This document shows positions 1,076 to 21,881 of a stretch of 21,881 nt of DNA, piece by piece. The position numbers were made by a program, and so were the translations under genes. Origin of the DNA: a virus (Duplodnaviria; Heunggongvirae; Uroviricota; Caudoviricetes). A model generated the notes under the pieces. It did no database searches, was not told where the DNA came from, and saw only the letters and a program-made list of their open reading frames with translations. The stretch covers positions 1 to 21,881 of IMG/VR virus record IMGVR_UViG_2671180357_000006. One strand, 5' to 3'. Position 1 is the first letter of the stretch, and each line of letters begins with the position of its first letter.

Positions 1076-3415
1076 TTAATCTTCTAATTCATCTGTCGGT
1101 GATGTCTTCTCGCGCCTGTCATCTATTGCCTGTAACGCAGCAATGATTTCAGCTAATGGCTTCTCCCGGTACATCTCGACGATCTGTGATTTGGTGTATT
1201 TCTTCTCGCCAATTTCCACACGCCCGCTGGCGCTCTTGGGCAGGTATCCTTCCTCCAGCATGTATTCGACCAGAGACTCGACGACGTCCAGCCCGCGAGT
1301 CGGGTCGAAGTAGAATTTCCATGAGCATTTGCCAAACGGAGGCGCGACTTTGTTTTTAATGCACTCGGCGCCAACGTCCTGTCCGATCTTCTCTTTGCCA
1401 TCCTTCATGACGGATGCACCCAGACGGATGCGCACCGACGCGTAGAACTTCGGAGAGTCGCCACCCGGAGACGTAGTCGGATCGCCAAACATCACACCAA
1501 TTTTGGTACGCACCTGGTTCAAGAAGATGATGCACGCGTTGTACTTACGCGCCCAAAGCGCCAGAGTAGGGAAGTTCGCACTTGTCGCGCGCGCCAGCGC
1601 CGTGTTGTCGTTCATGTTCAGCTGATCTTTGTCCTTCGCAGTGCCTTCTGCCATCTTGTCGAACTTCTCAGCCTTCGAGTTCGGAACCATCGACGCCAGA
1701 GAGTCGGCTACGATGCAGATAGGGGCTGTTTCCGGAATAAGCTCTTCGTCGCGCACCAGCTTGAGGATTGTGCCGATCAGCTCTACGGAGTCTTCGAAGG
1801 TATCCGGCTGTTTGTAGACCCACTGACCGTCGTCTTCGTCGGCGTTCAGTCCGTTCGCTACCGCCAGACCAACGTCGAAACTGTTTTCGTGGTCAAGGAA
1901 TACGGCCAGACCATCCTGTTTTTGTGCTGACACCATCGCAGCCGTCGCGAGGAATGTGTTGTGGCTGATAATCCCGTTAGACCAGAAAGAGTGTGTTTCC
2001 GGCATCGCTACGTCGAACGTTGGTGCTTCACCTTCCTCAATAGCCACGACTTCGTCGTAGAACAAGTTAGAGTCAATTACCGCTGCCAGTTGTGCAAACA
2101 GATGCTCGTTAAAACGATTCTTTCTGCCAATGAAGGAGACATAGATTTCTCGCAGTTTGTCTATTCCGACACGATCGCCGCGGCCAATAACGTGATCTAC
2201 CAGAACGTAGTCTTTACGAGAGGTCTTGGTGAGTGACTCGTAGAGTGATTTCACTAAGCCGCTGATGTGCGGAACGTAGCCTAAATAAGTGCGGTCAAAA
2301 CTAATGTCCCGTTTGGTTGCCACTGCTAAACGAGCCGGAGACTCGAACCCAATCGTTGACAGGAAAAGGTCGTAGTTAGAGCCACTGAATGACAGCCGGT
2401 AATATATGTTTTTATAACCTGCGACGTGTTTTTCAGAGATAGTTGACGTAATCCCCAGATTCAGGAGCATGAGGCGAATTTGCTGTAGCAGCAGCCCACT
2501 CGCGCTCACAACCTCAATGCAGCGACCATCATTGACGTGGCATTCCAGCTCAAAGTAGCCGCGAAGGAATGCAATTTGAGCCTCGCTATTGGCGCGACGC
2601 ACACTCAACGGAACCTGCTTGCCAGCAGCTTTCTCATACTCCAGACCATATTCTTTAAAAAGCAGCGAACGCACCTCTTTGCTAAACAGCACATGGTCTT
2701 CCGAGCCGTTATGTTTTCTCGTAACTGGCATCTTGTCTGATACCAGCGAAATGAGGCGGTAGTACTCATCCTTGATGAATGGATCTGTGTTAGAAACATG
2801 CACAGAATTTTCAGAGGCCACGTATCCGTCAGCAATTAAATAGCCCATCAGTTTTGCGATATTGGCATCCAAGTGCTGATCGCCGAATTGATGTGTGCCA
2901 ACCATTGAAGGAATAGTGTCGCCTACACTGATTTTTTCAGCATACCGCCAGACGATATTGCCTAAGTCGTCAACCACACGAATTGGGTGACGGAACGTAG
3001 CCTCGATGTAACCCCCTGATGCCAGCTTAATGCGCTTGAATTTGCGACGGTTGTTCCATGTCAGGTGTGAGGTCTTCTCTATCACGCCATTTTCATTGAT
3101 GAGTCCAACGTTATGCTCTACATCGCGAGTAGTGCATGTTGCTTTGTGCCCCTCAATCTCAAACAGTTCTTTCACTGTTACCATTCCACGCTCCGTCAGC
3201 AGCATGGTGTCTGCGGTAACACATTTCCCCGCGCTTGGTGGCCCGAAGACTTCAACGATACGCCCACATGGAAAACCACCGTCGTAACGTCCGGAAATGG
3301 CTTTGTTCAGTGGAGGGAAACCGGAGTCAATCCAGTGGGAGACCTTCTGAATCTCGTCATTGCTGCCGATTTTCTTTTTCAGCGCCAGTGCCAGTGCGGA
3401 TTTGCCTTTTGCCAT
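1076..3415 (-). CDS. RecA-family recombinase interrupted by an intein (779-aa precursor; exteins total 357 aa)
   Basis: N-extein ends GRIVEVFGPPSAGK and the C-extein starts TFLATAAMV, which rejoin to a Walker A motif GPPSAGKT. The C-extein carries FLNQVRTKIGVMFGDPTTSPGGDSPKFYASVRIRLG, closely matching the bacterial RecA core [36 protein letters not shown]. AGGAG RBS 7 nt upstream of the ATG. Confidence 0.9.
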   Translation of the reverse strand: MAKGKSALALALKKKIGSNDEIQKVSHWIDSGFPPLNKAISGRYDGGFPCGRIVEVFGPPSAGKCVTADTMLLTERGMVTVKELFEIEGHKATCTTRDVEHNVGLINENGVIEKTSHLTWNNRRKFKRIKLASGGYIEATFRHPIRVVDDLGNIVWRYAEKISVGDTIPSMVGTHQFGDQHLDANIAKLMGYLIADGYVASENSVHVSNTDPFIKDEYYRLISLVSDKMPVTRKHNGSEDHVLFSKEVRSLLFKEYGLEYEKAAGKQVPLSVRRANSEAQIAFLRGYFELECHVNDGRCIEVVSASGLLLQQIRLMLLNLGITSTISEKHVAGYKNIYYRLSFSGSNYDLFLSTIGFESPARLAVATKRDISFDRTYLGYVPHISGLVKSLYESLTKTSRKDYVLVDHVIGRGDRVGIDKLREIYVSFIGRKNRFNEHLFAQLAAVIDSNLFYDEVVAIEEGEAPTFDVAMPETHSFWSNGIISHNTFLATAAMVSAQKQDGLAVFLDHENSFDVGLAVANGLNADEDDGQWVYKQPDTFEDSVELIGTILKLVRDEELIPETAPICIVADSLASMVPNSKAEKFDKMAEGTAKDKDQLNMNDNTALARATSANFPTLALWARKYNACIIFLNQVRTKIGVMFGDPTTSPGGDSPKFYASVRIRLGASVMKDGKEKIGQDVGAECIKNKVAPPFGKCSWKFYFDPTRGLDVVESLVEYMLEEGYLPKSASGRVEIGEKKYTKSQIVEMYREKPLAEIIAALQAIDDRREKTSPTDELED
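1958..3223 (-). other. intein (422 aa) with LAGLIDADG homing-endonuclease domain, inserted in the RecA P-loop between K and T of GPPSAGK/T
   Basis: Starts with Cys (CVTADTMLL) and ends SHN, followed by Thr as the +1 extein residue. Two LAGLIDADG-type motifs inside (LMGYLIADGYV and FLRGYFELECHV). Removing it restores a canonical RecA P-loop. Confidence 0.8.
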
Positions 3416-3690: not shown

Positions 3691-4628
3691 TACCTCTCAA
3701 ACGGCAGAACAAACACTTCCAGATCTTCCAGAAACGAACGGAAATTCAGCTCGTAACACATCTGTTCAAAGGCGCTCATATCGCGTGCGCCTTTAATCGA
3801 CTCGATTTCGCTGGGTGGGAATTTTGTGTCGATAAGGTTCATCAGCATCATGTTGCGCTTAAAGGCTTCGAGCATCCGGCAGCCCGTCTTCTCGTTGAAG
3901 GCGTTCTTTGCCAGCTTGTTGAATGCCGTCTTATAGCGACCTTTGTTGATGACAATGGAACCGTCGTTAATGCCGCGTACCATTGCGGCCACGCTTCCCC
4001 ATTCATGAAGCAGCTCTTTCGCGCCACCATCACCAATGCCACCTACGCCTTTGATGTTGTCCGAGTTATCGCCCTGCAATGCTTTCGCTTCCAGAAACGC
4101 GCGTGGGGTCGGCAGACCGGTCAGCTCTGCGAACTGTTCGAAGTTCACCTGCTTGTGCTTGGCGTCTTCACGCAGGCTTATCCAGCTCACGTTCTCACGA
4201 ACAAGCTGGAGCCAGTCGCCATCGCCCGTTAGCAGATAGATATGGTCAACAGTCGGCTGCGGAGCCAGACGAGAGACCAGCATTCCAGCCAGGTCATCCG
4301 CTTCTGCGTCCTTTGCAATGAGTTGGTTAACGCCCAGCGCGGTCATCATTTTCAAGATGTACGGCTTCTGGATGGCAAAGCCTTCTTTCATCTTCTTCAT
4401 GTCCGGGTCGTCGTCGCGGTTCGCTTTGTACTCCGGGTAGAAGTCGCGACGTTTGTCGCTGAATCCATCCCACAAGATCATTGGCCGGGCATGGAGAATT
4501 GAGGCGTAACGACGAACGTTCTTCACGAAGCCAAAAGCCGCCTGAACTTCCATCTCGCCGTTGTGTAATTTGTCGGATTGCTGGTGGTAATAGCCCAGGC
4601 TGTTACCGTCCACAAAGAGATAATTCAC
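3684..4628 (-). CDS. 5'-3' exonuclease / flap endonuclease (FEN family, Xni / T5 D15-like)
   Basis: Motifs YLFVDGNSLGYY (N-terminal nuclease motif), LLTGDGDWLQLV and ALQGDNSDNIKGVGGIG (helix-hairpin-helix region). Start reassigned to the GTG at 4626-4628, which has an AAGGAG RBS 7 nt upstream; the track's ATG at 4679 would place a terminator hairpin inside the coding sequence. Confidence 0.8.
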   Translation of the reverse strand: MNYLFVDGNSLGYYHQQSDKLHNGEMEVQAAFGFVKNVRRYASILHARPMILWDGFSDKRRDFYPEYKANRDDDPDMKKMKEGFAIQKPYILKMMTALGVNQLIAKDAEADDLAGMLVSRLAPQPTVDHIYLLTGDGDWLQLVRENVSWISLREDAKHKQVNFEQFAELTGLPTPRAFLEAKALQGDNSDNIKGVGGIGDGGAKELLHEWGSVAAMVRGINDGSIVINKGRYKTAFNKLAKNAFNEKTGCRMLEAFKRNMMLMNLIDTKFPPSEIESIKGARDMSAFEQMCYELNFRSFLEDLEVFVLPFERYC

Positions 4629-5705: not shown

Positions 5706-5824
5706 GTATTTCTCCTTGTTGTGATTGTGGCCATTGGCGCTATGCGCATTGGGCGTTCGTTTGTTCGTGGCTCTTTCGAGCGAGAAGAATGATAGATCAG
5801 TACTTACTTACTATATAGCATAAA

Positions 5825-6365: not shown

Positions 6366-6926
6366 ATGGGGATAATTCTGATAACCTGTAGTCAGTACTG
6401 CGTAGTCGCAGATGCTCTGTATAGCCACGGTTGCGATGATGCGCTCATTTGCTACTACGGAAACTCAGTGTATGTAGAATTTGACCGAGAAGCTAAATCT
6501 TTAGATGAAGCAATCGAATCGGCAATCCTTGATATTGAAACAGCAGGCATTGGCGCAGTGGTGGAATCGGTAGATTCAGCACTGGTAGGCTTGAGCGATA
6601 TTGCTCAACTCTCTGGCTTAACGCGCCAGGCTATTACTCTGCTTAAAGACGGATTACGTGGCAAAGGTGATTTTCCTTGCCCTGTTCAGCGTATCAGCGG
6701 TCAGTCTCCACTCTGGGACTGGGCGGAAGTCGCTAAATGGTTGAACGACTGCGGTCGTCTTGACAGCAAAGACGAAAAAGCACGGGAAGAACTGGTGCGT
6801 AACGCGCGCACATTGAGTACGTGGAATCTTGCCCTGCGTATAAGATCGTTGGGCGACATTCATGAGGTGGAGAGAGTTACTCGCTCACTCAGTCACTCGC
6901 AAGACTGCGAAAAAATTTGCGCATAA
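6366..6926 (+). CDS. putative HTH DNA-binding protein, possibly HicB-like antitoxin fold (186 aa)
   Basis: The only plus-strand gene inside the minus-strand module. Central segment GLSDIAQLSGLTRQAITLLKDG looks like a helix-turn-helix; the N-terminal part loosely resembles HicB-type antitoxins. Ends at a strong bidirectional terminator. Confidence 0.5.
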   Translation: MGIILITCSQYCVVADALYSHGCDDALICYYGNSVYVEFDREAKSLDEAIESAILDIETAGIGAVVESVDSALVGLSDIAQLSGLTRQAITLLKDGLRGKGDFPCPVQRISGQSPLWDWAEVAKWLNDCGRLDSKDEKAREELVRNARTLSTWNLALRIRSLGDIHEVERVTRSLSHSQDCEKICA

Positions 6927-9900: not shown

Positions 9901-10461
9901 GTAGAATGGGGTAGGGTGCGGATAAACCACGCTGTAGAAGTTATCGCGTCCTCCAGCTGTCACCAGCGTCCCGATAATCTTTGCGAAGTCCCGGCGCTGG
10001 AATACACTGCCAATGTCGGACGTCAGCAGGATGATGTTGCCTTTGGCATATGCGGCCGCCAGCTGGTCAAGTGCCAGACGCGGAACAAAGTAGAATTGCT
10101 CGCGCTTGTTGGCTAAGGTCATCAGTTCGCACACGTCGCGATAACCTTGCTCATTCTTTATCAGTGCCGTGAAGCAGTAGCTTCGATCACGCACCAATGA
10201 TTCCATACATCCTCCTGACTCTTTCGCCAGGCGGGCGCGATGCTCGTATGTCGGATCGTCGACCACATTCAGCTTAACACCACAAATAACCGCCATGTCG
10301 TCGCCAGCGGCACGCTGCAGGGGGATCACACTGGCAATGTTCATGCTGTCAGCGGAAATGACAGCGGTGTAGCCAGCGTCTCTCGCGATTTTCACCGCGT
10401 TTTCTGCTTTTAGAGCTGACTCTCCCAGGGAGAAGTCAGTTCTGACCATCAGAGCCTTCAT
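6955..10461 (-). CDS. DNA polymerase III alpha-type (DnaE family, C-family polymerase), 1168 aa, with a non-canonical C-terminal domain
   Basis: Strong DnaE motifs: [10 protein letters not shown]...[27 protein letters not shown]...[21 protein letters not shown] (palm with catalytic aspartates), FRPGP, [42 protein letters not shown]. The N-terminal PHP-like region lacks the His pairs. Confidence 0.92.
   Translation of the reverse strand: [1168 protein letters not shown]
6958..7404 (-). other. C-terminal ~150-aa domain of the DnaE-like protein resembling a family-4 uracil-DNA glycosylase fold with degenerate catalytic motifs
   Basis: [18 protein letters not shown]...LYVTGVCKK...[17 protein letters not shown]...[14 protein letters not shown] aligns by eye with family-4 UDG (LVLVGEGPGEEEDKTGRPF...VYITNIVKCRPP...IVPLGAVAA...FPMFHPAYLLRNP); GEGPG is replaced by DNANG and HP by NP. 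It sits where bacterial DnaE has its OB-fold and tau-binding region. Confidence 0.55.
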
Positions 10462-11877: not shown

Positions 11878-11974
11878 GTGTTTTTTCCTTACTGTTTGTC
11901 GTTCGTGGGGTATATCTTATATAAATATATTAGGCTGTATAGTAAGTGATTACTTATTTTTACGGGTAAAGCTA

Positions 11975-14206
11975 TTACCCAAGAATGATACGAGATAGCT
12001 CAGTGACAACTGACGGCCCTAACTCTTCTACGCTGTTTACCAGCGCGTAATTTTTGTAGAAACGTCGTGGCTCGTCGGTCAGAATCCCGATAGCCATCAG
12101 ATCGATGTCGCTCAAGGTCTCAATTTCTTTGGTGACGGTTCGTAAATGCTGATGGAATCCACTACCTGTAGCACATGGCTCCCCATCACTCATAACCAGC
12201 ATGATCTTTTTGTCCTCCATTCGCCCTGCAAACAGGGTAGCCAGTTGCGCGATACTCTCACCATCGACGTTATTGAGCAGGGGGAACGTCTCACATACGC
12301 ATCCCATGCGAGCACGGATCTCTGGAGAGTTTGCTTTCTCATTCCAGTTTTTGATAATGGGCAGCATGAGCGCCTCGAAGCGTGTAAACCCGCGCTTCGA
12401 CCTAGTTTCATAATCTGGGCTACCGAACGTGGTAAAGCCGGTGATGATGTTGGGGACATTGATACGATCTAAAGCATCCGTAATGGTATAGGCACTGGCT
12501 AGGGCCAGTTGAATCTTCACGCCATCCATTGAGCCGGACAAGTCGATGACCTGCTGGACACACGCGTTCACCGCTCTATGGTCTTCCTTCTTGCGGAACA
12601 CTCGGTCGTCGTTCATTGCCAGACGATACAGGCTCGCGCCATGTATCCGCCCACGCCTCTGACCAGGTATAAACTGAACTCGGTTGCGGCTGGCGATGGC
12701 CCGCTCTAGGTCTTTGGCCAGCGTCGAAGAAACGCCTGCAGACAGATGTTTTTCGATTTTCAGTTCAAAGAGTTTTCTGCCTTCTGGCACCATACGGTAG
12801 CGGTCGACTGGTGAGTGCATTGGTATTGCACCGAACGTCTTTCTGGTGCGCTTCACATGCTCTTCGGCTCCATCAATCAACCCGATAAAGTCGTATGATC
12901 GATCGTATGGCCGATAATCAGAAGGTGAGACGCTCATAAGCTCTTTGCTGATGGTGGCCGACAGTGCGTCTTCGGTCATTTCACCGATTCCGTCTTCCAT
13001 CTCGTCGAGCGCCTTTAGCGCCTCCTCCAGAGTCATTTCATCCGGCGCAGGAACAAAGCCAGACTCACTGTCTTTGGGCACTTCCGCACCATCTTTATTT
13101 TTTTTGCCTTCGACGTCTTCTTCTTCAGTTTCCCCACGATCAGTATCGGAGTCCTCACCGCCATCACCATCGGTGTCAGAGTCACTTGATTTCATGCCGA
13201 TAGCATCGGATTCTGGGGTGTCTCCTGACTCTTCGTGGCCTGCTTCTGTATATTTACTTTCTGTATCACTAATATCTTTAACGTGTGTAGGTAAGTCCTT
13301 ATCTAACGAATCAGGCAAATCGGAATCCCCAGAATCTTCCTCTTCTGATGCATCATCTTCTCGTTCTTCCTTGTCATCGCCTTCGCCTTTGGCAGGCTTA
13401 GATGCAGAGTCACCATGAGACGGTTCGTCACCTGATTCTGGCGTTTCCTCGGACTCGTCTTTGCTCTCCGACGGCTTTCTGGAAGATGATTTAAGTTCTG
13501 GTAATTTGCCCTCTGGCTTGTCTTTCATATCCTGCATGATTTGGGCTATAGCAGCAGCGACCTTCACGCAATCCTCAGTGTTCGACATATTGCGAACGGC
13601 CACGTCTATACCATGCTCCTTTAGTAAGGCTACCGGCCTCTCGATAAGGCGCCAGTGTTCTTCCATAAAATCGATGAAGGGGCTTTGTCCATCCCAGGCG
13701 CGGACGACCGGGCAAAGGAAGAATTTCAAAAACAATTCACGCTGGTCTCCGTGACAGGCTAAAACCGCTTCTGGTACTTTATTCCTGAAGTATTTGTCGA
13801 TAACCAGACTCTGTGTTGCAAGTAAATTACGCCGGGTTCCGTTAAAGACCTGCCCCATTCTGCGTTCAATAAAAACGTCTTCCAGCGCATTCCAAAGCCC
13901 CGTAGACGGAGCCTTTCCTCTTTCGTGCATCTGCATTGCGACTTTCGGTTCAGTAAAGAGAATATGGGCCACCTCATGGTCGAGAAAACCACGCACTGCG
14001 TTCATGAGGGTTGGCGACGCGTCGTCCGGTATAGATGGGATGTTTACCAGCACTGGTTCGCCGCGCCGGTTATAGCGGACATATGCTTCATTGCCTCGTT
14101 CTGCAACAGGTATCTGTTTACCTGAAAGCATCGCTACAACTCGTTTTACACAGTCGCGAAAATCCTGCACCTCTTTCAGTACAGCTTTGGTGGTTTTTTT
14201 GGACAT
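11975..14206 (-). CDS. CobT-like von Willebrand factor A (vWA) protein with HExxH motif and long acidic linker (about 744 aa from the RBS-supported start)
   Basis: C-terminal vWA domain with MIDAS DLSGSM and SDGEP; central ~145-aa Asp/Glu/Ser-rich low-complexity region; N-terminal LDHEVAHILF (HExxH). Start reassigned to the ATG at 14204-14206 preceded by AAGGGA; the track's ATG at 14275 lies inside an inverted repeat. Confidence 0.8.
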   Translation of the reverse strand: MSKKTTKAVLKEVQDFRDCVKRVVAMLSGKQIPVAERGNEAYVRYNRRGEPVLVNIPSIPDDASPTLMNAVRGFLDHEVAHILFTEPKVAMQMHERGKAPSTGLWNALEDVFIERRMGQVFNGTRRNLLATQSLVIDKYFRNKVPEAVLACHGDQRELFLKFFLCPVVRAWDGQSPFIDFMEEHWRLIERPVALLKEHGIDVAVRNMSNTEDCVKVAAAIAQIMQDMKDKPEGKLPELKSSSRKPSESKDESEETPESGDEPSHGDSASKPAKGEGDDKEEREDDASEEEDSGDSDLPDSLDKDLPTHVKDISDTESKYTEAGHEESGDTPESDAIGMKSSDSDTDGDGGEDSDTDRGETEEEDVEGKKNKDGAEVPKDSESGFVPAPDEMTLEEALKALDEMEDGIGEMTEDALSATISKELMSVSPSDYRPYDRSYDFIGLIDGAEEHVKRTRKTFGAIPMHSPVDRYRMVPEGRKLFELKIEKHLSAGVSSTLAKDLERAIASRNRVQFIPGQRRGRIHGASLYRLAMNDDRVFRKKEDHRAVNACVQQVIDLSGSMDGVKIQLALASAYTITDALDRINVPNIITGFTTFGSPDYETRSKRGFTRFEALMLPIIKNWNEKANSPEIRARMGCVCETFPLLNNVDGESIAQLATLFAGRMEDKKIMLVMSDGEPCATGSGFHQHLRTVTKEIETLSDIDLMAIGILTDEPRRFYKNYALVNSVEELGPSVVTELSRIILG

Positions 14207-14259: not shown

Positions 14260-14292
14260 CTGTACGAACAGGCATCTAATCTGTTCGTACAG
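14260..14292. promoter_or_regulatory. perfect 12-bp inverted repeat (candidate operator) in the promoter region of the CobT/CobS/DnaE gene block
   Basis: CTGTACGAACAG-N9-CTGTTCGTACAG, 54-86 bp upstream of the CobT-like start, overlapping a plausible -35/-10 on the minus strand. Confidence 0.4.
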
Positions 14293-14310
14293 GCGCTAGA
14301 GAGGATGGGA

Positions 14311-14318
14311 GGGGGGGG
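14311..14318. repeat. G8 homopolymer tract (C8 on the coding strand of the flanking operon)
   Basis: Directly visible run of eight G between the stop of the 70-aa gene (14319) and the inverted repeat. Confidence 0.9.
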
Positions 14319-14531
14319 TTAAATTGTGCGGACGGCTACTGAACCGCAGCCGGTATTGATGAGAGTGAAGCACTTGCCCTTTAGCTCAAAGATGTATGCG
14401 GTTGCGTCTTTCATGTCAAGTAACAAAGACTTTGTTGGCAGTTCAGTGAGTATGGCTGCTGCCCCATCATCGTCAATTGAAATCGTATGTCCGACCTCAA
14501 GGGCGATCAAATTAGAAGTTATTTTTTTCAT
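14319..14531 (-). CDS. hypothetical small protein (70 aa)
   Basis: First gene transcribed leftward from the divergent AT-rich control region; GGA-type RBS; the antisense ORF 14326..14655 is less plausible. Confidence 0.4.
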   Translation of the reverse strand: MKKITSNLIALEVGHTISIDDDGAAAILTELPTKSLLLDMKDATAYIFELKGKCFTLINTGCGSVAVRTI

Positions 14532-14787
14532 TTCATATCATCCAACTGAACACGTAAATACCTTGCAATACTACTACCTATTGTATCAATACGGAATACT
14601 TATGTATCAAATACAACTTAGTTTTAAGTTCTTAAATGAGTTATTTTTTAGATAGTTGTCTATTAGTGAAGCCTTTTGCGGTCAGTAAACCTATGTAAAA
14701 AAATAGATAAGTCTTTACAACACTAACCTTTGATGTAATATCAGTAAGCACTTACCAAATAAAATCAAAACACGCAGGTTGATAATT

Positions 14788-15177
14788 ATGGCTACCAACG
14801 AAACAAAAGAAGCTAAAGTAAGTCGCTACGCTGCTTACATTGACGCTTTAATCGCGATTTCTCCGAAAAGCCAGGCGACCATCGCGAAAGAAGCAGGCTA
14901 TAAAAACCCTAACAATCTTTCACTTATCAAGAGCGGCAAAATCCCGCTTCCGATCGACAAGGTCAGAGCGTTGGCTAAAGCATTGGATGCCGATTCGGTC
15001 CGATTGATGCTAATGGTGCTGGAAGAGCGTCATCCAGAGCTGTTAGCGTTTTTTCGCGACGAAGGCACAGCCCCTCTGACTAAAGATGAAAAACTAGTTC
15101 TGGAAGCCTTCCGTCGACGTTTCGGTGACCAACGTGGTGCGTCGGAGCGGGTTGTTGAGGCAATCAAGTCGCTATGA
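14788..15177 (+). CDS. putative HTH transcriptional regulator (130 aa from ATG; the track's TTG start at 14779 is less likely)
   Basis: SQATIAKEAGYKNPNNLSLIKSGKIPLPIDKVRALAKAL looks like a helix-turn-helix; AGG 9 nt upstream of the ATG; transcribed divergently from the 70-aa gene across a 256-bp AT-rich region; stop overlaps the integrase stop. Confidence 0.6.
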   Translation: MATNETKEAKVSRYAAYIDALIAISPKSQATIAKEAGYKNPNNLSLIKSGKIPLPIDKVRALAKALDADSVRLMLMVLEERHPELLAFFRDEGTAPLTKDEKLVLEAFRRRFGDQRGASERVVEAIKSL

Positions 15178-16275
15178 GAAATTTACACGGATTAGCTCAG
15201 TAGCGAGTCGATCTCCCTTGAACTTATGATCTATCTCCTCTAAATCCTGTTTCTCTACGATTGATGCGATGTACGCCGAAAAACTGTTTAAGGCGTCTCG
15301 CATCTCGTCTATATAATCGTGTCGATCGTATACTCGATCTATCCCCTCAAGACTGTGGTTCATAATTTTGCGGGATACCTCCTGACTTATGCCTAACGCG
15401 GGGAAGTAACTACGCGCAGTACGACGCAAATCTCGGGGAGTAAATGGCTCAAGCTCCATCAACTCTGGACGTTCTAAAATCCTTCTCAACGCCTGTGATA
15501 TGGCCACCTTAGACATTGGCACATCCTCACCCTGTTTCTTGTTTGAAGGAACAAGCCACTGGCTGCCTTTTCCGTATTTGATCAGCTCCTCAACACATTT
15601 GCGCATTAGCGGGCTTAATGGTAACGAGTGCTGGCGAGCCGATTTATTCCTCGTTCCTTGATTCCATAAATTATATTCGAGGTTGAATTCTGATCTTTTA
15701 GCTCGGAGCACTTCATCTGGTCGTCTGGCCGCTACAAGACATAATCTGGCCGCCCACTTTGTACCCTCACATACGTTGAAGTAGTCCCATACATTCCAAA
15801 AGACCCAGACCTCTGCGTCGGTCAGTTTGCGCTCGCGAGGCGTGGGCTTCGCGCCACCGGCTACTCTGTTAAGCGACATATCGTTCAATGGGGATGTATC
15901 AATTAAGCCCTGAAATGCACACCAACTGAGAAACTGCTTCATCAGCGAGAACACACGTCTGCCCTGGACGATCTTGCCCTCAAGTATTAATGGGTTCACC
16001 AGCTGGTTGACTAAAACCCTACTAATGTCACTTACTTTTACTTCACAGATATGCGGCATTACATGTATCAAAATACAATGAACAGCTATTTCAGGTCGAC
16101 GTCTCGTTATCAGCAAAGATAAGCGAGTGAATAACATGAATGCGGAAGAAAACGACATGTCACCGTCGAAATTGGTGGTCGACACTGCTGACAAGCCGGA
16201 AGCGCGTTCGAGATACTCGATGGCTTCTCTAGAGGTGTTTTCTGCTGCGCGTGCTTTATCAAAAGTGTTTTTCAT
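15172..16275 (-). CDS. int: tyrosine recombinase / integrase, P4-type catalytic domain; N-terminal arm-binding domain not recognisable
   Basis: Catalytic-domain motifs LTDAEVWVFWN, RLCLVAARRPDEVLRAKRSEFNL, TPRDLRRTARSY, IMNHSLEGIDRVYDRHDY (R..H-x-x-R..Y). The first ~70 residues do not resemble the usual P4-type N-terminus. Confidence 0.85.
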   Translation of the reverse strand: MKNTFDKARAAENTSREAIEYLERASGLSAVSTTNFDGDMSFSSAFMLFTRLSLLITRRRPEIAVHCILIHVMPHICEVKVSDISRVLVNQLVNPLILEGKIVQGRRVFSLMKQFLSWCAFQGLIDTSPLNDMSLNRVAGGAKPTPRERKLTDAEVWVFWNVWDYFNVCEGTKWAARLCLVAARRPDEVLRAKRSEFNLEYNLWNQGTRNKSARQHSLPLSPLMRKCVEELIKYGKGSQWLVPSNKKQGEDVPMSKVAISQALRRILERPELMELEPFTPRDLRRTARSYFPALGISQEVSRKIMNHSLEGIDRVYDRHDYIDEMRDALNSFSAYIASIVEKQDLEEIDHKFKGDRLATELIRVNFS

Positions 16276-16303
16276 AGTCCACTCACTGAGTGAAGCCTGT
16301 TTT

Positions 16304-16323
16304 TACTGTATTTATAAACAGTA
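16304..16323. promoter_or_regulatory. LexA (SOS) box-like palindrome over the putative integrase promoter
   Basis: TACTGTATTTATAAACAGTA matches the gammaproteobacterial consensus TACTGTATATATATACAGTA at 18 of 20 positions (CTGT-N8-ACAG). It lies 29 bp upstream of the integrase ATG, abutting a -35 TTGATC, 16-bp spacer, -10 TAATAT on the minus strand. Confidence 0.55.
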
Positions 16324-16372
16324 TATTAGGCCTAAGTTTTGTATGATCAACAGTAAAATAGACTGTTTTTGA

Positions 16373-16407
16373 AAATGATTCCATACCTTACAAGTATGGA
16401 ATCATTT
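16373..16407. repeat. perfect 14-bp inverted repeat / hairpin in the integrase-cassette intergenic region
   Basis: AAATGATTCCATAC-N7-GTATGGAATCATTT. No clean U-tract on either strand, so terminator, recombinase-binding site and att core are all possible. Confidence 0.4.
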
Positions 16408-16574
16408 ATATAGCTTACGTAAATTCTGAATAAATTATGTAGACAAACCATCTTAAACGCTAAATAGTAAAAAGCGCCTAATAACGCCAACTTTGGAATG
16501 CCATCTGAGCCAGATTGATGAGAATGATTTGTTAGAAGAAAAAGAATGATGAAGAAGATGACGATCGCTAAAGT

Positions 16575-16991
16575 TCAGCTAGAATGGAAACCTTCTGCGA
16601 CTTCAGCGAAGTAGCTGAGCAACCTAGTATCTCTTGCTGGCATACGATCGTGAGCTGGAGTGACTAGCCCCATCAGCAAAAAACGCCCGCTATCCCACAT
16701 GTGCTCGGTATAAACGAGATAGTGGTTTGAGGTTCGGTTGTAGTTCTCTTGCCTTGCGTTCCAGGTAAGCTGGAAATGCAAATTGACGTGAATATGCTGG
16801 ACATTAGCATCAACGGCGAACGGCGGGAAGTCAAATGGTGCATCTCGTCCAAGAAGATTAGATGGTGCGCCAGTTGATTTGTAAGTAATGAACTCGGATT
16901 TGAGCTGACTTTCTAGGTCAGGGTAAACGACAAAAGTGGGCTGAAAAAAATCATCCCACGTAACTTGACTGTATTCAGCCGTTAATGCCAT
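16575..16991 (-). CDS. hypothetical protein (138 aa), second gene of a two-gene cassette
   Basis: ORF with ordinary composition; start overlaps the stop of the upstream 182-aa gene by 10 bp (translational coupling). No recognisable motif. Confidence 0.5.
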   Translation of the reverse strand: MALTAEYSQVTWDDFFQPTFVVYPDLESQLKSEFITYKSTGAPSNLLGRDAPFDFPPFAVDANVQHIHVNLHFQLTWNARQENYNRTSNHYLVYTEHMWDSGRFLLMGLVTPAHDRMPARDTRLLSYFAEVAEGFHSS

Positions 16992-17530
16992 TTAGCCGCA
17001 GCCTTGTTGCCAGTCTCTAATAGATGGTTCATGGCTAAAAGGTTGACACCAGAGTCACGCACTACAGAAGTGCGTGTAATCTGATCAATCAGATTGAGAT
17101 AGTTTTTGGTCGCAATACTGACCATTTTAATAGCCTTAAAAAACGCAAACTCAACAGTGTTTTTTTCGTAAGACATGATGACGTCTTTTTCAGGTAACAT
17201 CAAAACAAAAGATTCTGCGATACCGGCTACATGAATAGTTTGATTCTTAATTTCTTCCGCTACTTTGATAGCAGCAAAGAAGTCAGTGTCAGCATAATGA
17301 GCAAGTTCAGCGCGGCTTGAACGCAGTTCTTTAGCCAATTCATTGAGAGCAGCTGTAAGATCACTGATGTCGGTTTTGTTGACTCTAGCGCCCATCTCAT
17401 AAACCCGTTCGACAATCGTAGGCTGACACGCAACCGCTTTGGGTTGCGGCTGGATACTGGCAAGAACCAGTGCCACTGCTGCCTGCAAATGCTGGATTTT
17501 AAATTTCACGATAGACTCCATAATCGTCAT
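16982..17530 (-). CDS. hypothetical protein (182 aa), first gene of a two-gene cassette
   Basis: ORF downstream of the tRNA terminator, co-oriented with the 138-aa gene. No recognisable motif. Confidence 0.5.
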   Translation of the reverse strand: MTIMESIVKFKIQHLQAAVALVLASIQPQPKAVACQPTIVERVYEMGARVNKTDISDLTAALNELAKELRSSRAELAHYADTDFFAAIKVAEEIKNQTIHVAGIAESFVLMLPEKDVIMSYEKNTVEFAFFKAIKMVSIATKNYLNLIDQITRTSVVRDSGVNLLAMNHLLETGNKAAAKWH

Positions 17531-17609
17531 TTCTCGACGAAGCGTAGCATTCTACTACTGAACTTAACTATAAGCTAAAAAAAGTTGGTTGCATATGCGA
17601 CTTGATAGC

Positions 17610-17631
17610 AAAAAGGGGCCGAAGCCCCTTT
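17610..17631 (-). terminator. rho-independent terminator downstream of the tRNA
   Basis: Minus-strand reading gives GGGGC-TTCG-GCCCC followed by TTTTT (GC stem with a UUCG tetraloop). Confidence 0.65.
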
Positions 17632-17705
17632 GGATTTTGCGCTGAAAAAAGTGTTGCTACGATGCTTAGAAGCAATGGTTAAAAAACGTCTGCCGTGTCT
17701 ATCAC

Positions 17706-17780
17706 AGCGCTGAACGGTCTGGCGACATTTGCGGAGTCTTTCGTTCGGACGGTGATGGCGAATCCAAACCGTTCAGCGCT
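17706..17780. repeat. 13-bp perfect inverted repeat flanking a 49-bp spacer, directly 3' of the tRNA
   Basis: AGCGCTGAACGGT (17706-17718) and ACCGTTCAGCGCT (17768-17780); the tRNA CCA end is at 17785-17787. Confidence 0.5.
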
Positions 17781-17784
17781 ATGT

Positions 17785-17859
17785 TGGCGATGGTGGGTGG
17801 ACTCGAACCACCGACCAGTTGATTAACAGTCAACCGCTCTACCACTGAGCTACACCATC
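17785..17859 (-). tRNA. tRNA-Asn (anticodon GTT)
   Basis: Minus-strand sequence GATGGTG-TA-GCTC-AGTGGTA-GAGC-G-GTTGA-CTGTTAA-TCAAC-TGGTC-GGTGG-TTCGAGT-CCACC-CACCATC-G-CCA folds as a canonical cloverleaf with perfect 7-bp acceptor, 5-bp anticodon and 5-bp T stems, a TTCGAGT T-loop and encoded CCA. Confidence 0.88.
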
Positions 17860-17968: not shown

Positions 17969-18006
17969 AGATCTCGAATCTTTCTCGGTGGTTGATTGCC
18001 GTTAGA

Positions 18007-18044
18007 GGGGGAACCGCAGAATTCGGAAAAAATCGTACGCTAAG
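18007..18044 (+). repeat. 38-bp terminal inverted repeat of the Tn1721-like transposon (outer end at 18007)
   Basis: GGGGGAACCGCAGAATTCGGAAAAAATCGTACGCTAAG: Tn21-family IR signature including the EcoRI site known from Tn1721 ends. Flanking 5 bp outside are TTAGA. Confidence 0.85.
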
Positions 18045-18144
18045 CTAACGGTGTTCTCGTGACAGCTCTTTGACTAGGCTTTCTAAGGCCATTCTGATAG
18101 CCCTGACTTCCTGAAAAGCCATGGCTAAAATTTGTGCGGCTAAA

Positions 18145-18176
18145 AGGGATAACCGATGGTAAAGTAAGTTATCCCT
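18145..18176 (-). terminator. hairpin 3' of mcp; weak candidate terminator
   Basis: 9-bp stem AGGGATAAC / GTTATCCCT with a 14-nt loop, about 20 bp after the mcp stop; only TTTA follows on the minus strand. Confidence 0.35.
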
Positions 18177-18195
18177 GTCGAGATACTGAAAAGCG

Positions 18196-19773
18196 TTATC
18201 CTCGTTTTTCCCAAAACTGTTTTGCCAGTTCGCTCAGAGCGCTAGTTAACTGAGCGACAGATTTCGCACTTTGCAAATTATTCTGCCCGGTCTGTACATT
18301 GGTATCAGCAGCATCGCGTATATTGATAATACTGCGGTTTATGTCTTCACTTACTGCTCCCTGCTGCTCGACCGCAGTCGCTATTTGCGCGTTCATGTCG
18401 GTAATTTCGTTAACGCGTTGGCCAATTCCATCAAGAGCTGTAGCTGCTTCCTCTGCGTGAGCTACACTCGTGTGCGCTTGCCGACTACTTTGCTCCATGA
18501 CTGTAACAGCGGATTGCGCTCGCTCTTGTAGAGCGCTGATCATGCTTTGAATATCCGTTGTCGATTGCTGTGTGCGAGCAGCAAGACTGCGAACCTCATC
18601 GGCGACAACAGCAAAACCACGCCCCTGCTCACCAGCACGCGCGGCCTCAATTGCTGCGTTGAGTGCCAACAAATTCGTTTGCTCGGCGATCCCTCGTATA
18701 ACGTCAAGAACTTTTGATATCTCGTTACTTTGACCTTCAAGCTCATGAATAACCTGAGTGGCTTGCCTAATTTCACCTTCAAGGGCAGTGATTGACTGGC
18801 TTGTGTGGGCTACCAGACGCTGGCCAGATGCCGTCTCAGTGTCTGCTCTTCCGGCCGCATCTGCAGCATGCTGTGCATTGCTCGCAACCTCTTGAATGCT
18901 TGCCACCATTTGGTTTACTGCCGTTGCTATTTGATCTGTCTCTGCCTGCTGCTCAACTGTAAGTACATTGCTTGACTCAATATCCTTTAGTAGGCCTCGG
19001 GTGTGTTCGCTAAGCCGATTTGATGCATCACCTATGCGACCTACTATGGCGCCTGTTTCAGCTTGCATCATTCGTAAAGCAAACTCTATTTGGCCAAACT
19101 CATCGGTGCGCCCAGTGTAGAGGGATTGACTTAATGGGTTATTGGAAATATTCCTGGCTCTTTCAACCAGTCTTCCAAGAGGAGAGAGAATAGCCAAAAC
19201 ACTAACAGAGCTTAAGCTTCCTGACATTAAAGTGGCTAACAATAAGCTGCTTATTGATGTATCAGTAAGCATGCCGGCAGCCATTGCGCTTGATATAATA
19301 CTACCCCATATGAGCAAGAGTATTTTCACGGAAAAGCTAGCAGCCAATTTCGGCCTCGCGGCCTTCCCGCTTCTCAATTGAGCATATAATTTTTCCGCAG
19401 CCAAAACCTGCTCAGGTTCAGGCTTGGTCCTTACAGACTGGTATTCAACAATCGAACCATTCTTAGCTATTGGCGTTACATAAGCACTTACCCAATAGTG
19501 GTCGCCATTTTTACAGCGATTTTTTACTAGCCCCATCCATGAGCGGCCAGATTTTAATGTACTCCACATATGCTCAAATGCAGCAGGCGGCATATCTGGG
19601 TGTCTTACGATGTTGTGAGGCTGGCCTAATAGTTCTTCCTCAGTGAAACCACTGATTTTAATGAAGTCAGGATTAACGTATGTGATATGGCTTTGAGGGG
19701 AGGTAGTCGAAAGAATATTGGCATCTTTTGGGAGTTCTAAGTTTCGACCCGTCACTGGTAAATTCTGGCGCAT
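18196..19773 (-). CDS. mcp: methyl-accepting chemotaxis protein with N-terminal PAS domain (Aer-like); transposon passenger gene (525 aa)
   Basis: N-terminus [75 protein letters not shown] parallels the E. coli Aer PAS region; the MCP signalling domain has [32 protein letters not shown]; hydrophobic segment in the middle; GAGG RBS upstream. Confidence 0.9.
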
Positions 19774-19924
19774 AAGAACCTCAAGGGTTGGCTGTTTTAT
19801 TTTATTGTTTTCGGCATTAAGCCCAATTTCTTGAGCGTTACGATAAAGCTAGCATGGAAACGATAGGTGCAAGCAAGTTAAGGGTTGCATCGCGCATGTC
19901 AATCTAGGCTATACCCTAACTTGA

Positions 19925-20075
19925 TGTCAGGCAGGGCCGCGCCGCTTCGTCAGAATAGAGTCTGCTTTCCCATTTTTTGACACATGCCCGCGAAGGTTAT
20001 AGATTTCAGCCTGACAGAAATGGGCTTTGAGGCACAACGGAACAGAAAGTGCACTTAAGCCGCCTTCAACCAAGG
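19925..20075. promoter_or_regulatory. res (resolution) site and tnpR promoter region of the transposon
   Basis: Clustered imperfect TGTCA/TGACA-type half-site pairs (TGTCAGGCAGG...CGTCAG, CGTCAGAATAGAGTCTG...TTGACA, TGACACATGCCC...CAGCCTGACA) between mcp and tnpR, as expected for Tn21-family res subsites; followed by an AAGGAG RBS before the tnpR GTG. Confidence 0.5.
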
Positions 20076-20082
20076 AGACATC

Positions 20083-20643
20083 GTGCAGGGGCACCGCATC
20101 GGCTACGTCCGGGTCAGCAGCTTTGACCAGAACCCGGAACGCCAGCTGGAACAAACCCAGGTGAGCAAGGTGTTCACCGACAAGGCATCGGGCAAGGACA
20201 CCCAGCGCCCCCAGCTCGAAGCGCTGCTGAGCTTCGTCCGCGAAGGCGATACAGTGGTGGTGCGCAGCATGGATCGGCTGGCCCGCAACCTCGATGACCT
20301 GCGTCGCTTGGTACAGAAGCTGACTCAGCGCGGCGTGCGCATCGAGTTCCTGAAGGAGGGCCTGGTGTTCACTGGCGAGGACTCGCCGATGGCCAACCTG
20401 ATGCTGTCGGTGATGGGGGCCTTCGCTGAGTTCGAGCGCGCCCTGATCCGCGAGCGGCAGCGTGAGGGCATCGCCTTGGCCAAGCAGCGTGGCGCGTACC
20501 GGGGCCGCAAGAAAGCCCTGTCCGATGAGCAGGCTGCTACCCTGCGGCAGCGAGCGACGGCCGGCGAGCCCAAGGCGCAGCTTGCCCGCGAGTTCAACAT
20601 CAGCCGGGAAACCCTCTACCAGTACCTCCGCACGGACGACTGA
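20083..20643 (+). CDS. tnpR: serine resolvase TnpR (Tn21/Tn1721 subgroup), GTG start
   Basis: MQGHRIGYVRVSSFDQNPERQLE... with the catalytic serine region, and C-terminal HTH ISRETLYQYLRTD; near-identical by recollection to Tn1721/Tn501-type resolvase. Confidence 0.95.
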   Translation: MQGHRIGYVRVSSFDQNPERQLEQTQVSKVFTDKASGKDTQRPQLEALLSFVREGDTVVVRSMDRLARNLDDLRRLVQKLTQRGVRIEFLKEGLVFTGEDSPMANLMLSVMGAFAEFERALIRERQREGIALAKQRGAYRGRKKALSDEQAATLRQRATAGEPKAQLAREFNISRETLYQYLRTDD

Positions 20644-20646
20644 CAC

Positions 20647-21881
20647 ATGCCGCGTCGCTTGATCCTCTCGGCCACGGAGCGGGACACCCTGCTTGCGCTG
20701 CCGGAAAGCCAGGATGACCTGATCCGCTACTACACCTTCAACGACTCCGACCTGTCGCTGATCCGCCAGCGACGCGGCGACGCCAACCGCCTCGGCTTCG
20801 CCGTGCAGCTCTGCCTGCTGCGCTACCCCGGTTACGCGCTGGGAACCGACAGCGAGCTGCCCGAGCCGGTCATCCTGTGGGTGGCGAAGCAAGTCCAGGC
20901 CGAGCCGGCGAGCTGGGCAAAGTACGGCGAGCGCGACGTGACCCGTCGCGAGCATGCCCAGGAACTGCGCACCTACCTGCAACTGGCCCCGTTCGGCCTG
21001 TCCGACTTCCGCGCCCTGGTGCGCGAGCTAACCGAGCTGGCCCAGCAGACCGACAAAGGCTTGCTGCTGGCCGGTCAGGCCCTGGAGAGCCTACGGCAGA
21101 AACGACGCATCCTGCCGGCGCTGAGCGTGATTGACCGGGCCTGCTCGGAAGCCATTGCGCGAGCCAATCGGCGGGTCTACCGCGCCCTGGTCGAACCACT
21201 CACGGACTCGCATCGGGCCAAGCTGGACGAGCTGTTGAAGCTCAAGGCCGGCAGCAGCATCACCTGGTTGACCTGGCTGCGCCAGGCACCGCTGAAACCC
21301 AACTCTCGGCACATGCTGGAACACATCGAGCGGCTGAAGACATTTCAGTTGGTGGACTTGCCCGAAGGCCTGGGCCGGCACATCCACCAGAACCGCCTGC
21401 TCAAGCTGGCCCGCGAGGGTGGGCAGATGACGCCCAAAGACCTCGGTAAGTTCGAGCCGCAGCGCCGCTACGCGACCCTGGCCGCCGTGGTGCTGGAGAG
21501 CACCGCGACCGTGATCGATGAGCTGGTCGATCTGCATGACCGCATCCTGGTCAAGCTGTTCAGCGGCGCGAAGCACAAGCATCAGCAGCAGTTCCAGAAG
21601 CAGGGCAAGGCGATCAACGACAAGGTGCGCCTGTACTCCAGGATCGGCCAGGCGCTGCTGGAAGCGAAGGAAAGCGGCAGCGACCCCTATGCCGCCATCG
21701 AGGCGGTGATTCCCTGGGACGAGTTCACCGAGAGCGTCAGCGAGGCCGAGCTGCTGGCCCGGCCGGAAGGCTTCGACCACCTGCACCTGGTCGGCGAGAA
21801 CTTCGCCACCCTGCGCCGTTACACGCCGGCCTTGCTGGAGGTGCTGGAACTGCGCGCCGCGCCGGCCGCGCAAGGCGTGCT
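20647..21881 (+). CDS. tnpA: Tn3-family transposase TnpA, 5' partial (first ~411 codons; runs off the window end)
   Basis: ATG at 20647, 3 nt after the tnpR stop; translation [44 protein letters not shown]...[12 protein letters not shown]...[10 protein letters not shown]... matches the Tn21-family TnpA N-terminus. Absent from the ORF track because no stop is reached. Confidence 0.92.

Follow-up and report, generated by a model that had tools for sequence, protein, structure and literature searches.

A conserved divergent control region, its TGTAT repeats and a dispersed palindrome in an SSU5-type phage-plasmid

Genes and conservation around the control region

We analyzed a 256-bp intergenic spacer (positions 14532-14787) in a 21,881-nucleotide stretch of Caudoviricetes DNA, hereafter called the window (IMG/VR record IMGVR_UViG_2671180357_000006, positions 1 to 21,881). 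An original prediction, made from the letters of the window alone, held that this spacer resembles a genetic switch and that TGTAT/ATACA half-sites repeated in and near it could be operators for an adjacent helix-turn-helix (HTH) protein or arm-type sites for an integrase. The spacer does lie between two divergent open reading frames (ORFs) as described, one encoding a 70-aa protein on the minus strand and the other a 129-aa HTH protein on the plus strand. Leftward from 14531 are genes for the 70-aa protein, a CobT-like VWA protein, an AAA_5 (CobS-like) ATPase, a DnaE-type polymerase, a gp32-like single-stranded DNA-binding protein, a 5'-3' exonuclease, and an intein-bearing RecA. Rightward of the spacer are genes for the 129-aa HTH protein, a tyrosine recombinase, and a YafO toxin-antitoxin pair, followed by a tRNA-Asn.

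Using megablast, we found that the window belongs to the SSU5 phage-plasmid family, with SSU5 itself matching at 94% identity, followed by Cyrano and Klebsiella phage-plasmids. The 2.2 kb around the control region is matched by 826 plasmid records in PLSDB, and S. Typhi pHCM2 and Y. pestis pMT1 are among them. These matches identify the window as an SSU5/pHCM2/pMT1-type phage-plasmid, and elements of the SSU5 type are maintained as plasmids. Motifs were counted in the window and in a near-identical complete plasmid of 115 kb (NZ_CP101235.1, 99.7% identical over the control region). To measure conservation we gathered 97 related loci, condensed these into 14 lineages with identities of 64-93% across window positions 14308-16476, and scored each position by the fraction of these lineages that carry the majority base. 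Conservation, motif statistics, and protein fold were determined directly, and gene expression was taken from published values for Cyrano homologues. The features on which the first part of the analysis rests are these:

14319-14531, minus strand: 70-aa ORF, first gene of the leftward operon; phrog_2627, a family of unknown function
14532-14787: divergent control region, with two conserved blocks flanking an unconserved middle in the 14 lineages
14566-14615: block A, mean majority-base fraction 0.82; holds both intergenic TGTATCA copies
14700-14760: block B, majority-base fraction 0.90; carries the promoter of the HTH gene
14714-14741, plus strand: predicted sigma-70 promoter of the HTH gene, TTTACA-16-TAATAT, from a promoter scan
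14788-15177, plus strand: 129-aa HTH ORF, XRE-type; phrog_8 transcriptional regulator (E = 1e-10)
15172-16275, minus strand: tyrosine recombinase ("integrase", int); Pfam Phage_integrase, phrog_1

The stretch between blocks A and B (14616-14699) has a majority-base fraction of 0.55. This pattern of conservation indicates that the 256-bp spacer is a real divergent control region. Within block B, the TTTACA and TAATAT hexamers of the predicted promoter are invariant across the 14 lineages.

An AlphaFold (AF2) model of the 129-aa protein has a confident five-helix XRE fold followed by a helical C-terminus of low model confidence. In the PDB, this model is closest to two C-proteins, C.AhdI and C.BclI, and to 434 Cro. 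Family members share a conserved recognition helix, NNLSLIKSGK, which is also found at the same position in the HTH protein of a more distant plasmid, pKqq_SB1124_3, which is 101 aa long and about 40% identical. A Pfam search of the 129-aa protein gave no match at all, and an S24 cleavage domain was not found. A search of 5.8 billion proteins for distant HTH homologues returned matches only from within the same phage-plasmid family, and searches of solved structures with Int and the HTH protein returned nothing useful.

Expression data are available for Cyrano, a homologous phage-plasmid in E. coli LF82 that is induced 39-fold by ciprofloxacin (PMC9928086). CYRAN_45, the homologue of the HTH gene, is listed there as a putative (lysogeny) repressor and is expressed about 10-fold over background in the lysogen (PMC9928086). 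In gene-level RNA-seq comparing growth in LB with 6 h in macrophages (log2 values, S1 table), the Cyrano repressor rises from 6.6 to 9.9 (PMC9928086). We regard the 129-aa XRE-type protein as a probable prophage repressor. The suggestion that the region resembles a genetic switch is supported by the two conserved blocks, the HTH-gene promoter, the XRE fold, and the annotation and expression of the Cyrano repressor.

A palindrome dispersed over the element

A 20-bp palindrome occurs in two copies that bracket the HTH-gene promoter. The consensus of this palindrome, ATAGGTAAGTACTTACCTAT, was derived from aligned sites, and a position weight matrix (PWM) constructed with these sites finds about 29 sites in the 115-kb relative. 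Nearly all copies are in short intergenic gaps, and they occur in both early and late gene clusters. In the window we found the following copies:

1018-1037: window site of the dispersed palindrome
5792-5811: copy upstream of the gp32-like gene; PWM score 21.4
11938-11957: copy between the CobS-like and CobT-like genes
13287-13306: copy inside the CobT-like gene; kept in many loci and in SSU5
14703-14722: distal copy, ATAGATAAGTCTTTACAACA; PWM score 15.2, with a match to the core RTAAGNNNTTAC; overlaps the -35 of the HTH-gene promoter; kept in most lineages
14740-14759: proximal copy, ATCAGTAAGCACTTACCAAA; PWM score 21.0; begins at the end of the -10 and covers the expected start site

At the HTH-gene promoter, GTAAGCACTTAC (14744-14755) follows directly after the -10 and the related ATAAGTCTTTAC (14707-14718) overlaps the -35. 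The GTAAGNNCTTAC core of the proximal copy is present in every related locus that covers this position. The core RTAAGNNNTTAC has 6 matches in the window compared with 0.11 expected, a count reached in 0/100 shuffles. In the 115-kb relative the same core occurs at 14 distinct sites (about 1.5 matches expected on both strands) and GTAAGNNCTTAC occurs at 4 sites (about 0.07 expected). SSU5 and the distant pKqq plasmid have the palindrome as well. Our literature searches found no paper with the palindrome sequence and no account of SSU5-type operators or of the way in which DNA damage induces these elements.

These observations point to the palindrome as a likely operator, recurring about 29 times, and to the rightward promoter TTTACA-16-TAATAT as the one that would drive the gene for the 129-aa XRE-type repressor. 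This repressor is the putative binder of the palindrome. The pKqq_SB1124_3 plasmid keeps palindromes of the same type along with the LexA box and the core recombination site that are described below. This pattern is compatible with the palindrome as the operator of the HTH protein and is non-discriminating.

The TGTATCA copies and a predicted leftward promoter

The three copies of the TGTAT/ATACA motif that had been listed are exactly where they were placed, and we add a fourth. All four share the plus strand, and two of them overlap elements of a predicted leftward promoter, P_L:

14575-14581, minus strand: palindrome half-site (left arm), ATAGGTA on the bottom strand, fused to the -10 of P_L; recognized by comparison with ATAGGTAAGTACTTACCTAT
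14580-14588, minus strand: predicted extended -10 of P_L, TGATACAAT on the bottom strand; overlaps copy 1
14582-14592, plus strand: motif copy 1, TGTATCAATAC
14603-14615, plus strand: motif copy 2, TGTATCAAATACA
14605-14610, minus strand: predicted -35-like hexamer of P_L, TTGATA, from copy 2; CTGATA in most relatives
15895-15902, plus strand: motif copy 3, TGTATCAA, inside int; missed by the original prediction
16064-16077, plus strand: motif copy 4, TGTATCAAAATACA, inside int codons 67-71

In the window, TGTATCAA occurs 4 times compared with 0.61 expected, with at least 4 copies in 2/100 shuffles, and TGTAT-N(0-8)-ATACA occurs twice compared with 0.08 expected. The motif had been picked post hoc, so look-elsewhere corrections were applied. 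In 19/200 dinucleotide shuffles of the window (p ~0.1), one or another 8-mer had four or more copies on one strand within 1.5 kb, and a repeated 8-mer appeared in 56-62% of simulated 256-nt sequences of 71% A+T composition. The named motif exceeds the count expected from shuffled composition, but it does not clearly stand out once the look-elsewhere corrections are made. TRTATCAR is not enriched in the near-identical 115-kb plasmid (20 observed compared with 18 expected). The window-only statistics are marginal evidence, and composition alone makes the repeat unconvincing.

Conservation distinguishes the copies from one another. The left halves, TGTATCA (consensus TRTATCA), score 0.90 in copy 1 and 0.92 in copy 2 and are the best-conserved parts of block A. 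The right halves are less conserved, with 0.77 for ATAC in copy 1 and 0.65 in copy 2, and thus copies 1 and 2 are not conserved as palindromes. At the position of copy 2 most lineages have TATATCAGAT(A/G/T)n. The conserved unit is a 7-mer in direct repeat, with copies 1 and 2 being 21 nt apart. Copy 3 scores 0.79, is present as TGTATCAA in 5/14 lineages, and is probably coincidental. Copy 4 scores 0.97 and is nearly invariant across the 14 lineages; its near-identity to copy 2 is peculiar to the window's own sub-lineage. TRTATCA is absent from both the control region and int of pKqq_SB1124_3.

Within int only two runs of 10 nt or longer are invariant; one of them, TGTATCAAAA, belongs to copy 4, which lies within a local peak of synonymous-site conservation (z ~2.7). 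The copy 4 codons TTG (L69) and ATA (I70) are invariant in the 14 lineages, which is true of only 19/237 (8%) comparable codons. This conservation marks copy 4 as a separate, nearly invariant element. We considered whether an overlapping gene or an internal start of Int could account for it. No start codon is present in the antisense open frame at copy 4, which is the frame that is commonly poor in stops, and M73, the candidate internal start, is not a conserved residue. By inspection, we saw no conserved -35/-10 pair around 16040-16150, and no Rfam family was found at copy 4. By manual comparison, no copy of the motif fits the consensus sequences for IHF (WATCAANNNNTTR), CRP, FNR, TyrR, or DnaA sites.

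One explanation is that the repeats are a by-product of AT-rich composition with no shared function, block A being conserved for other reasons and copy 4 through its coding. The look-elsewhere frequencies, the lack of enrichment in the near-identical plasmid, and the poor conservation of copy 3 are all in line with this, and just 2 invariant degenerate codons underlie copy 4. By contrast, composition does not account for the 7-mers being the best-conserved parts of block A, for the rare codons TTG and ATA being invariant in 14 lineages, or for the recurrence of TGATACAAT, which is found specifically at intergenic sites associated with the palindrome. We consider this explanation improbable.

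TGATACAAT is 49 nt upstream of the start codon of the 70-aa gene (ATG at 14531), and the -35-like hexamer is 19 nt upstream of the -10. The pattern TGnTAnnnT is present at copy 1 in 10/14 lineages, and TACCTAT, the half-site at 14575-14581, is kept in most lineages. The 115-kb relative has only 3 occurrences of TGATACAAT, all in intergenic DNA with a palindrome copy no more than about 25 nt away. These are at the P_L position, upstream of a helicase operon (78225), and at 99562. From these sequences, copies 1 and 2 are most likely the core elements of an early leftward promoter, P_L, and on balance we favor promoter architecture as the best explanation of the TGTATCA motif. The spacer would then be an immunity (lysis/lysogeny) control region with two back-to-back sigma-70 promoters. 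Copy 1 on the bottom strand would provide the extended -10, fused to ATAGGTA, and copy 2 would provide the TTGATA hexamer resembling a -35. Transcription from P_L would cover the 70-aa gene and then continue past a stem-loop into the replication genes.

The 70-aa protein has only 5 homologues, and its AF2 model (all-beta, pLDDT 52) is of too low quality to be used in a fold search. CYRAN_46, its homologue in Cyrano, rises from a log2 value of 4.3 in LB, which is near background, to 10.8 after 6 h in macrophages, an increase of about 85-fold (PMC9928086). Over the same comparison the Cyrano CobT gene goes from 2.9 to 5.9, and Cyrano int from 5.6 to 10.3, about 25-fold (PMC9928086). The rise of the 70-aa homologue compared with the low level of CobT indicates that the first leftward gene is strongly inducible and that there is polarity before CobT. 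Between the 70-aa and CobT-like genes of the window (14260-14292) there is a hairpin with a perfect stem of 12 bp and a loop of 9 nt (CTGTACGAACAG...CTGTTCGTACAG) that is also found in SSU5. Located at the position of the polarity, this stem-loop may be an attenuator or a processing site.

Several observations weigh against this account of P_L and the palindrome. The 19-nt spacer between the -35 and -10 of P_L is longer than optimal, and the strict TGnTAnnnT is missing at copy 1 in 4/14 lineages (Cyrano-type and Klebsiella-type), where the last base deviates or the TG is missing. Copy 2 (0.92) is too conserved for the weak -35 of an extended -10 promoter, a hint that a protein binds there as well. 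Copy 4, nearly invariant within a coding region, is unaccounted for by a promoter. P_L has a palindrome half-site only, and repression by the palindrome binder is not evident there. Its start site, like the other transcription start sites and the repression of P_L, is a prediction drawn from the sequence. Lastly, some palindromes lie between late genes for structural proteins, and SSU5 has kept palindromes without having the HTH gene; this leaves room for another regulator, which may be the palindrome binder. If SSU5 is a recent deletion derivative, its palindromes are uninformative about the binder.

The conservation of copies 2 and 4 bears on a second explanation, in which TRTATCA boxes bind a regulator (the HTH repressor, the 70-aa product, or a phrog_2620 protein) that occludes or activates P_L and couples it to int, in the manner of Cox in P2 and Apl in 186. 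The boxes are same-strand direct repeats, all copies are in one orientation, and the 21-nt spacing of the two boxes over P_L equals two helical turns, with a third box inside int at 16064. Neither a weak -35 nor a coding sequence would call for the degree of conservation seen in copies 2 and 4. A phrog_2620 protein ("excisionase and transcriptional regulator") is encoded at 6366-6926, and the homologues of int and of the 70-aa gene rise together in macrophages. However, there are only two boxes at the switch, compared with the usual three or more at about 10-11 bp in the arrays of recombination directionality factors (RDFs). The boxes are not enriched in the near-identical complete plasmid, and the distant relative, where the HTH helix, LexA box, and core site are all retained, has none of them. 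Because pKqq keeps the helix without TRTATCA, it argues against TGTATCA boxes as the operator of this HTH family. Moreover, the close resemblance of copies 2 and 4 is limited to the sub-lineage of the window, and copy 1 coincides exactly with a -10 element common to two other promoters. We regard a regulator bound to these boxes as rather unlikely.

The proposal that the TGTAT/ATACA half-sites are palindromic operators with a variable spacer also fares poorly. The ATACA halves are not conserved even though the recognition helix is, and the three quoted copies, with 2, 3, and 4 nt between their half-sites, are unsuited to one rigid dimer. No copy is at the HTH-gene promoter, the motif is not enriched in 115 kb, and it is absent in pKqq. 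A different sequence, the 20-bp palindrome, is vastly more frequent than expected and lies on both sides of the HTH-gene promoter. The 20-bp palindrome is likely the better candidate for the operator.

The recombinase gene and comparison with known systems

Upstream of the recombinase gene are three further features:

16306-16325: LexA (SOS) box, TACTGTATTTATAAACAGTA, near-consensus; adjoins or overlaps the predicted int promoter, just downstream of it
16325-16352, minus strand: predicted int promoter, TTGATC-16-TAATAT
16373-16407: candidate core recombination site, a 14-7-14 inverted repeat (AAATGATTCCATAC-cttacaa-GTATGGAATCATTT) just upstream of the recombinase gene

The 115-kb relative has no CTGT-N8-ACAG other than the LexA box, which is conserved in the 14 lineages and in pKqq. 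Its location before int suggests SOS control of the recombinase. The arms of the inverted repeat are invariant in the 14 lineages, its 7-bp spacer is variable, and the site is present in 90/97 loci. Family homology ends just beyond it. The repeat looks like a lox/dif-type core site that also forms a cargo junction. The cargo beyond it varies by lineage and includes the YafO toxin-antitoxin pair, a CYRAN_43-like gene, a colicin-E1-family immunity gene, and caf1 (F1 capsule), which is about 0.6 kb beyond the repeat in Y. pestis pMT1. CYRAN_43 (3772-4326, just beyond the core site; hypothetical) is by far the top-expressed Cyrano gene in the lysogen, about 720-fold over background (PMC9928086). 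The matching position in the window holds the YafO toxin-antitoxin pair instead.

The motifs had also been proposed as arm-type sites. They would then be bound by the N-terminal domain of the recombinase in an attP-like or resolution complex with the core at 16373-16407. A plausible core does lie upstream of int, copy 4 is 300 bp from it, and the recombinase has a family-specific 70-aa N-terminal extension, although this extension matches no known arm-binding domain. However, all copies are on one side of the candidate core and 0.3-1.8 kb away, which is far beyond usual arm lengths, rather than flanking it within about 150 bp. The elements are maintained as plasmids, and pKqq keeps the core site without the boxes. 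In addition, the sequence that recurs near the core and elsewhere is the core arm itself (GATGTATGGAATCAT) and not TGTATCA. We consider arm-type sites very improbable.

Other repeats were noted in and around int. Extra copies of the core arm (GATGTATGGAATCAT / TGATTCCATAC) occur at 10198-10208 inside dnaE, at 15659-15669 inside int, and in intergenic regions of NZ_CP101235.1 at 29636 and 30657, and TGATTCCATA has 6 copies compared with 0.33 expected. The strongest peak of synonymous conservation in int is at 16114-16143 (codons 45-54), about 40 nt from copy 4, where GATAAGCG is invariant. This segment holds a palindrome fragment, AGATAAG, that resembles the left arm.

SSU5 (NC_018843.1, 42525-42761), which was isolated as a lytic phage, is without the whole module of 70-aa gene, HTH gene, recombinase, core site, and toxin-antitoxin pair (window 14319-17785), and its tRNA-Asn directly abuts the CobT-like gene. 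This absence is consistent with a repressor-less derivative. In the window, family homology stops at 18006. The remaining DNA (18007-21881) begins with GGGGGAACCGCAGAATTCGGAAAAAATCGTACGCTAAG, which we take to be a Tn1721/Tn21-type terminal inverted repeat, and from 18007 onward is a Tn1721-type transposon end. Next come a chemotaxis-receptor gene (PAS/HAMP/MCP) and GC-rich transposon DNA (63-68%), and the sequence matches parts of P1-like and SJ46 resistance phage-plasmids at 99.9% identity. At the other end of the window, an intein splits the RecA-like gene (1076-3415) and carries a homing endonuclease domain of the LAGLIDADG type. In an Rfam search the tRNA-Asn was the sole family found, and a sub-threshold match to GAIT was spurious.

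In the immunity system of P1, the C1 repressor has many operators dispersed over a plasmid prophage, and a small anti-repressor, Coi, is encoded beside c1. The elements studied here are likewise plasmid prophages in which a short sequence is found at many intergenic sites over about 100 kb, the repressor promoter included, and in which a small gene of about 70 codons adjoins the repressor gene. Such intergenic over-representation of one sequence, extending to the repressor promoter, is what we found for the 20-bp palindrome. The two systems differ in that the P1 operators are asymmetric 17-mers and the candidate repressor here has an XRE fold and, judged by its matches to phrog_8, C-proteins, and 434 Cro rather than by direct comparison with the C1 sequence, is not a C1 homologue. 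Copies here are also found between late structural genes, and binding of the palindrome by the repressor is putative.

The arrangement also resembles the OR switch of lambda and 434, with a repressor gene and a lytic operon diverging from one spacer, a fold like that of 434 Cro, and operator-like palindromes over the repressor promoter. By contrast, the two promoters here are about 150 bp apart with an unconserved middle, and there is no tripartite operator common to both. The repressor is without an S24 autocleavage domain, and the first leftward product, judged from a low-confidence model, is not like a Cro-type HTH protein. P_L resembles sigma-70 promoters of the extended -10 type (TGnTATAAT) in having TGATACAAT on the bottom strand about 50 nt upstream of the 70-aa start codon, with a -35 that is both poor and over-spaced. 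We found TGnTAnnnT suitably upstream of a gene at 14580-14588; unlike the established type, the promoter here deviates in 4/14 lineages and is predicted from sequence.

Cox and Apl bind direct repeats at the switch and at att, and RDF arrays usually contain at least three repeats. P2 Cox and 186 Apl are described as RDFs that regulate the switch via direct repeats (PMC7498355). The window has short direct repeats at the switch and near the recombinase gene and encodes a phrog_2620 protein. It differs in having two boxes at a spacing of 21 bp rather than about 10.5 bp and in the lack of boxes in the distant relative, and binding to them is putative. LexA-controlled induction modules are also described in plasmid prophages, including the N15 antirepressor and GIL01 (review PMC11652158). 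The non-cleavable repressor, the single strong LexA box 1.5 kb from the control region, and the 39-fold induction of Cyrano by ciprofloxacin are all similar to such modules. In contrast to those modules, no recognizable antirepressor stands behind the LexA box here, which instead fronts the gene of a tyrosine recombinase and a lox-like site.

These comparisons raise the possibility, which we hold to be doubtful, of an undescribed immunity circuit in SSU5-type phage-plasmids, among them S. Typhi pHCM2, Y. pestis pMT1, and E. coli and Klebsiella elements that carry resistance. In such a circuit a non-cleavable XRE repressor would act on about 29 palindromes, the SOS response would enter via the single LexA box before the recombinase and lox-like site, and the TGTATCA boxes at P_L and int would be sites at which Int, the 70-aa protein, or the phrog_2620 protein, as a second factor, couples expression of the recombinase to firing of the early promoter.

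The repeated motif that drew attention to this spacer is thus partly real and the control region is real, and the operator is probably a different palindrome that had not been remarked upon. The TGTAT motif itself adds little and most likely marks the early promoter. The system is a temperate-phage immunity region, which is already a known kind. SSU5-type phage-plasmids are common in Enterobacteriaceae, with 826 PLSDB matches to this module, and they carry resistance transposons, as does the window. The repressor promoter, the predicted early leftward promoter, and the likely operator mapped here would provide a map for work on induction, superinfection immunity, and curing or silencing of these elements.

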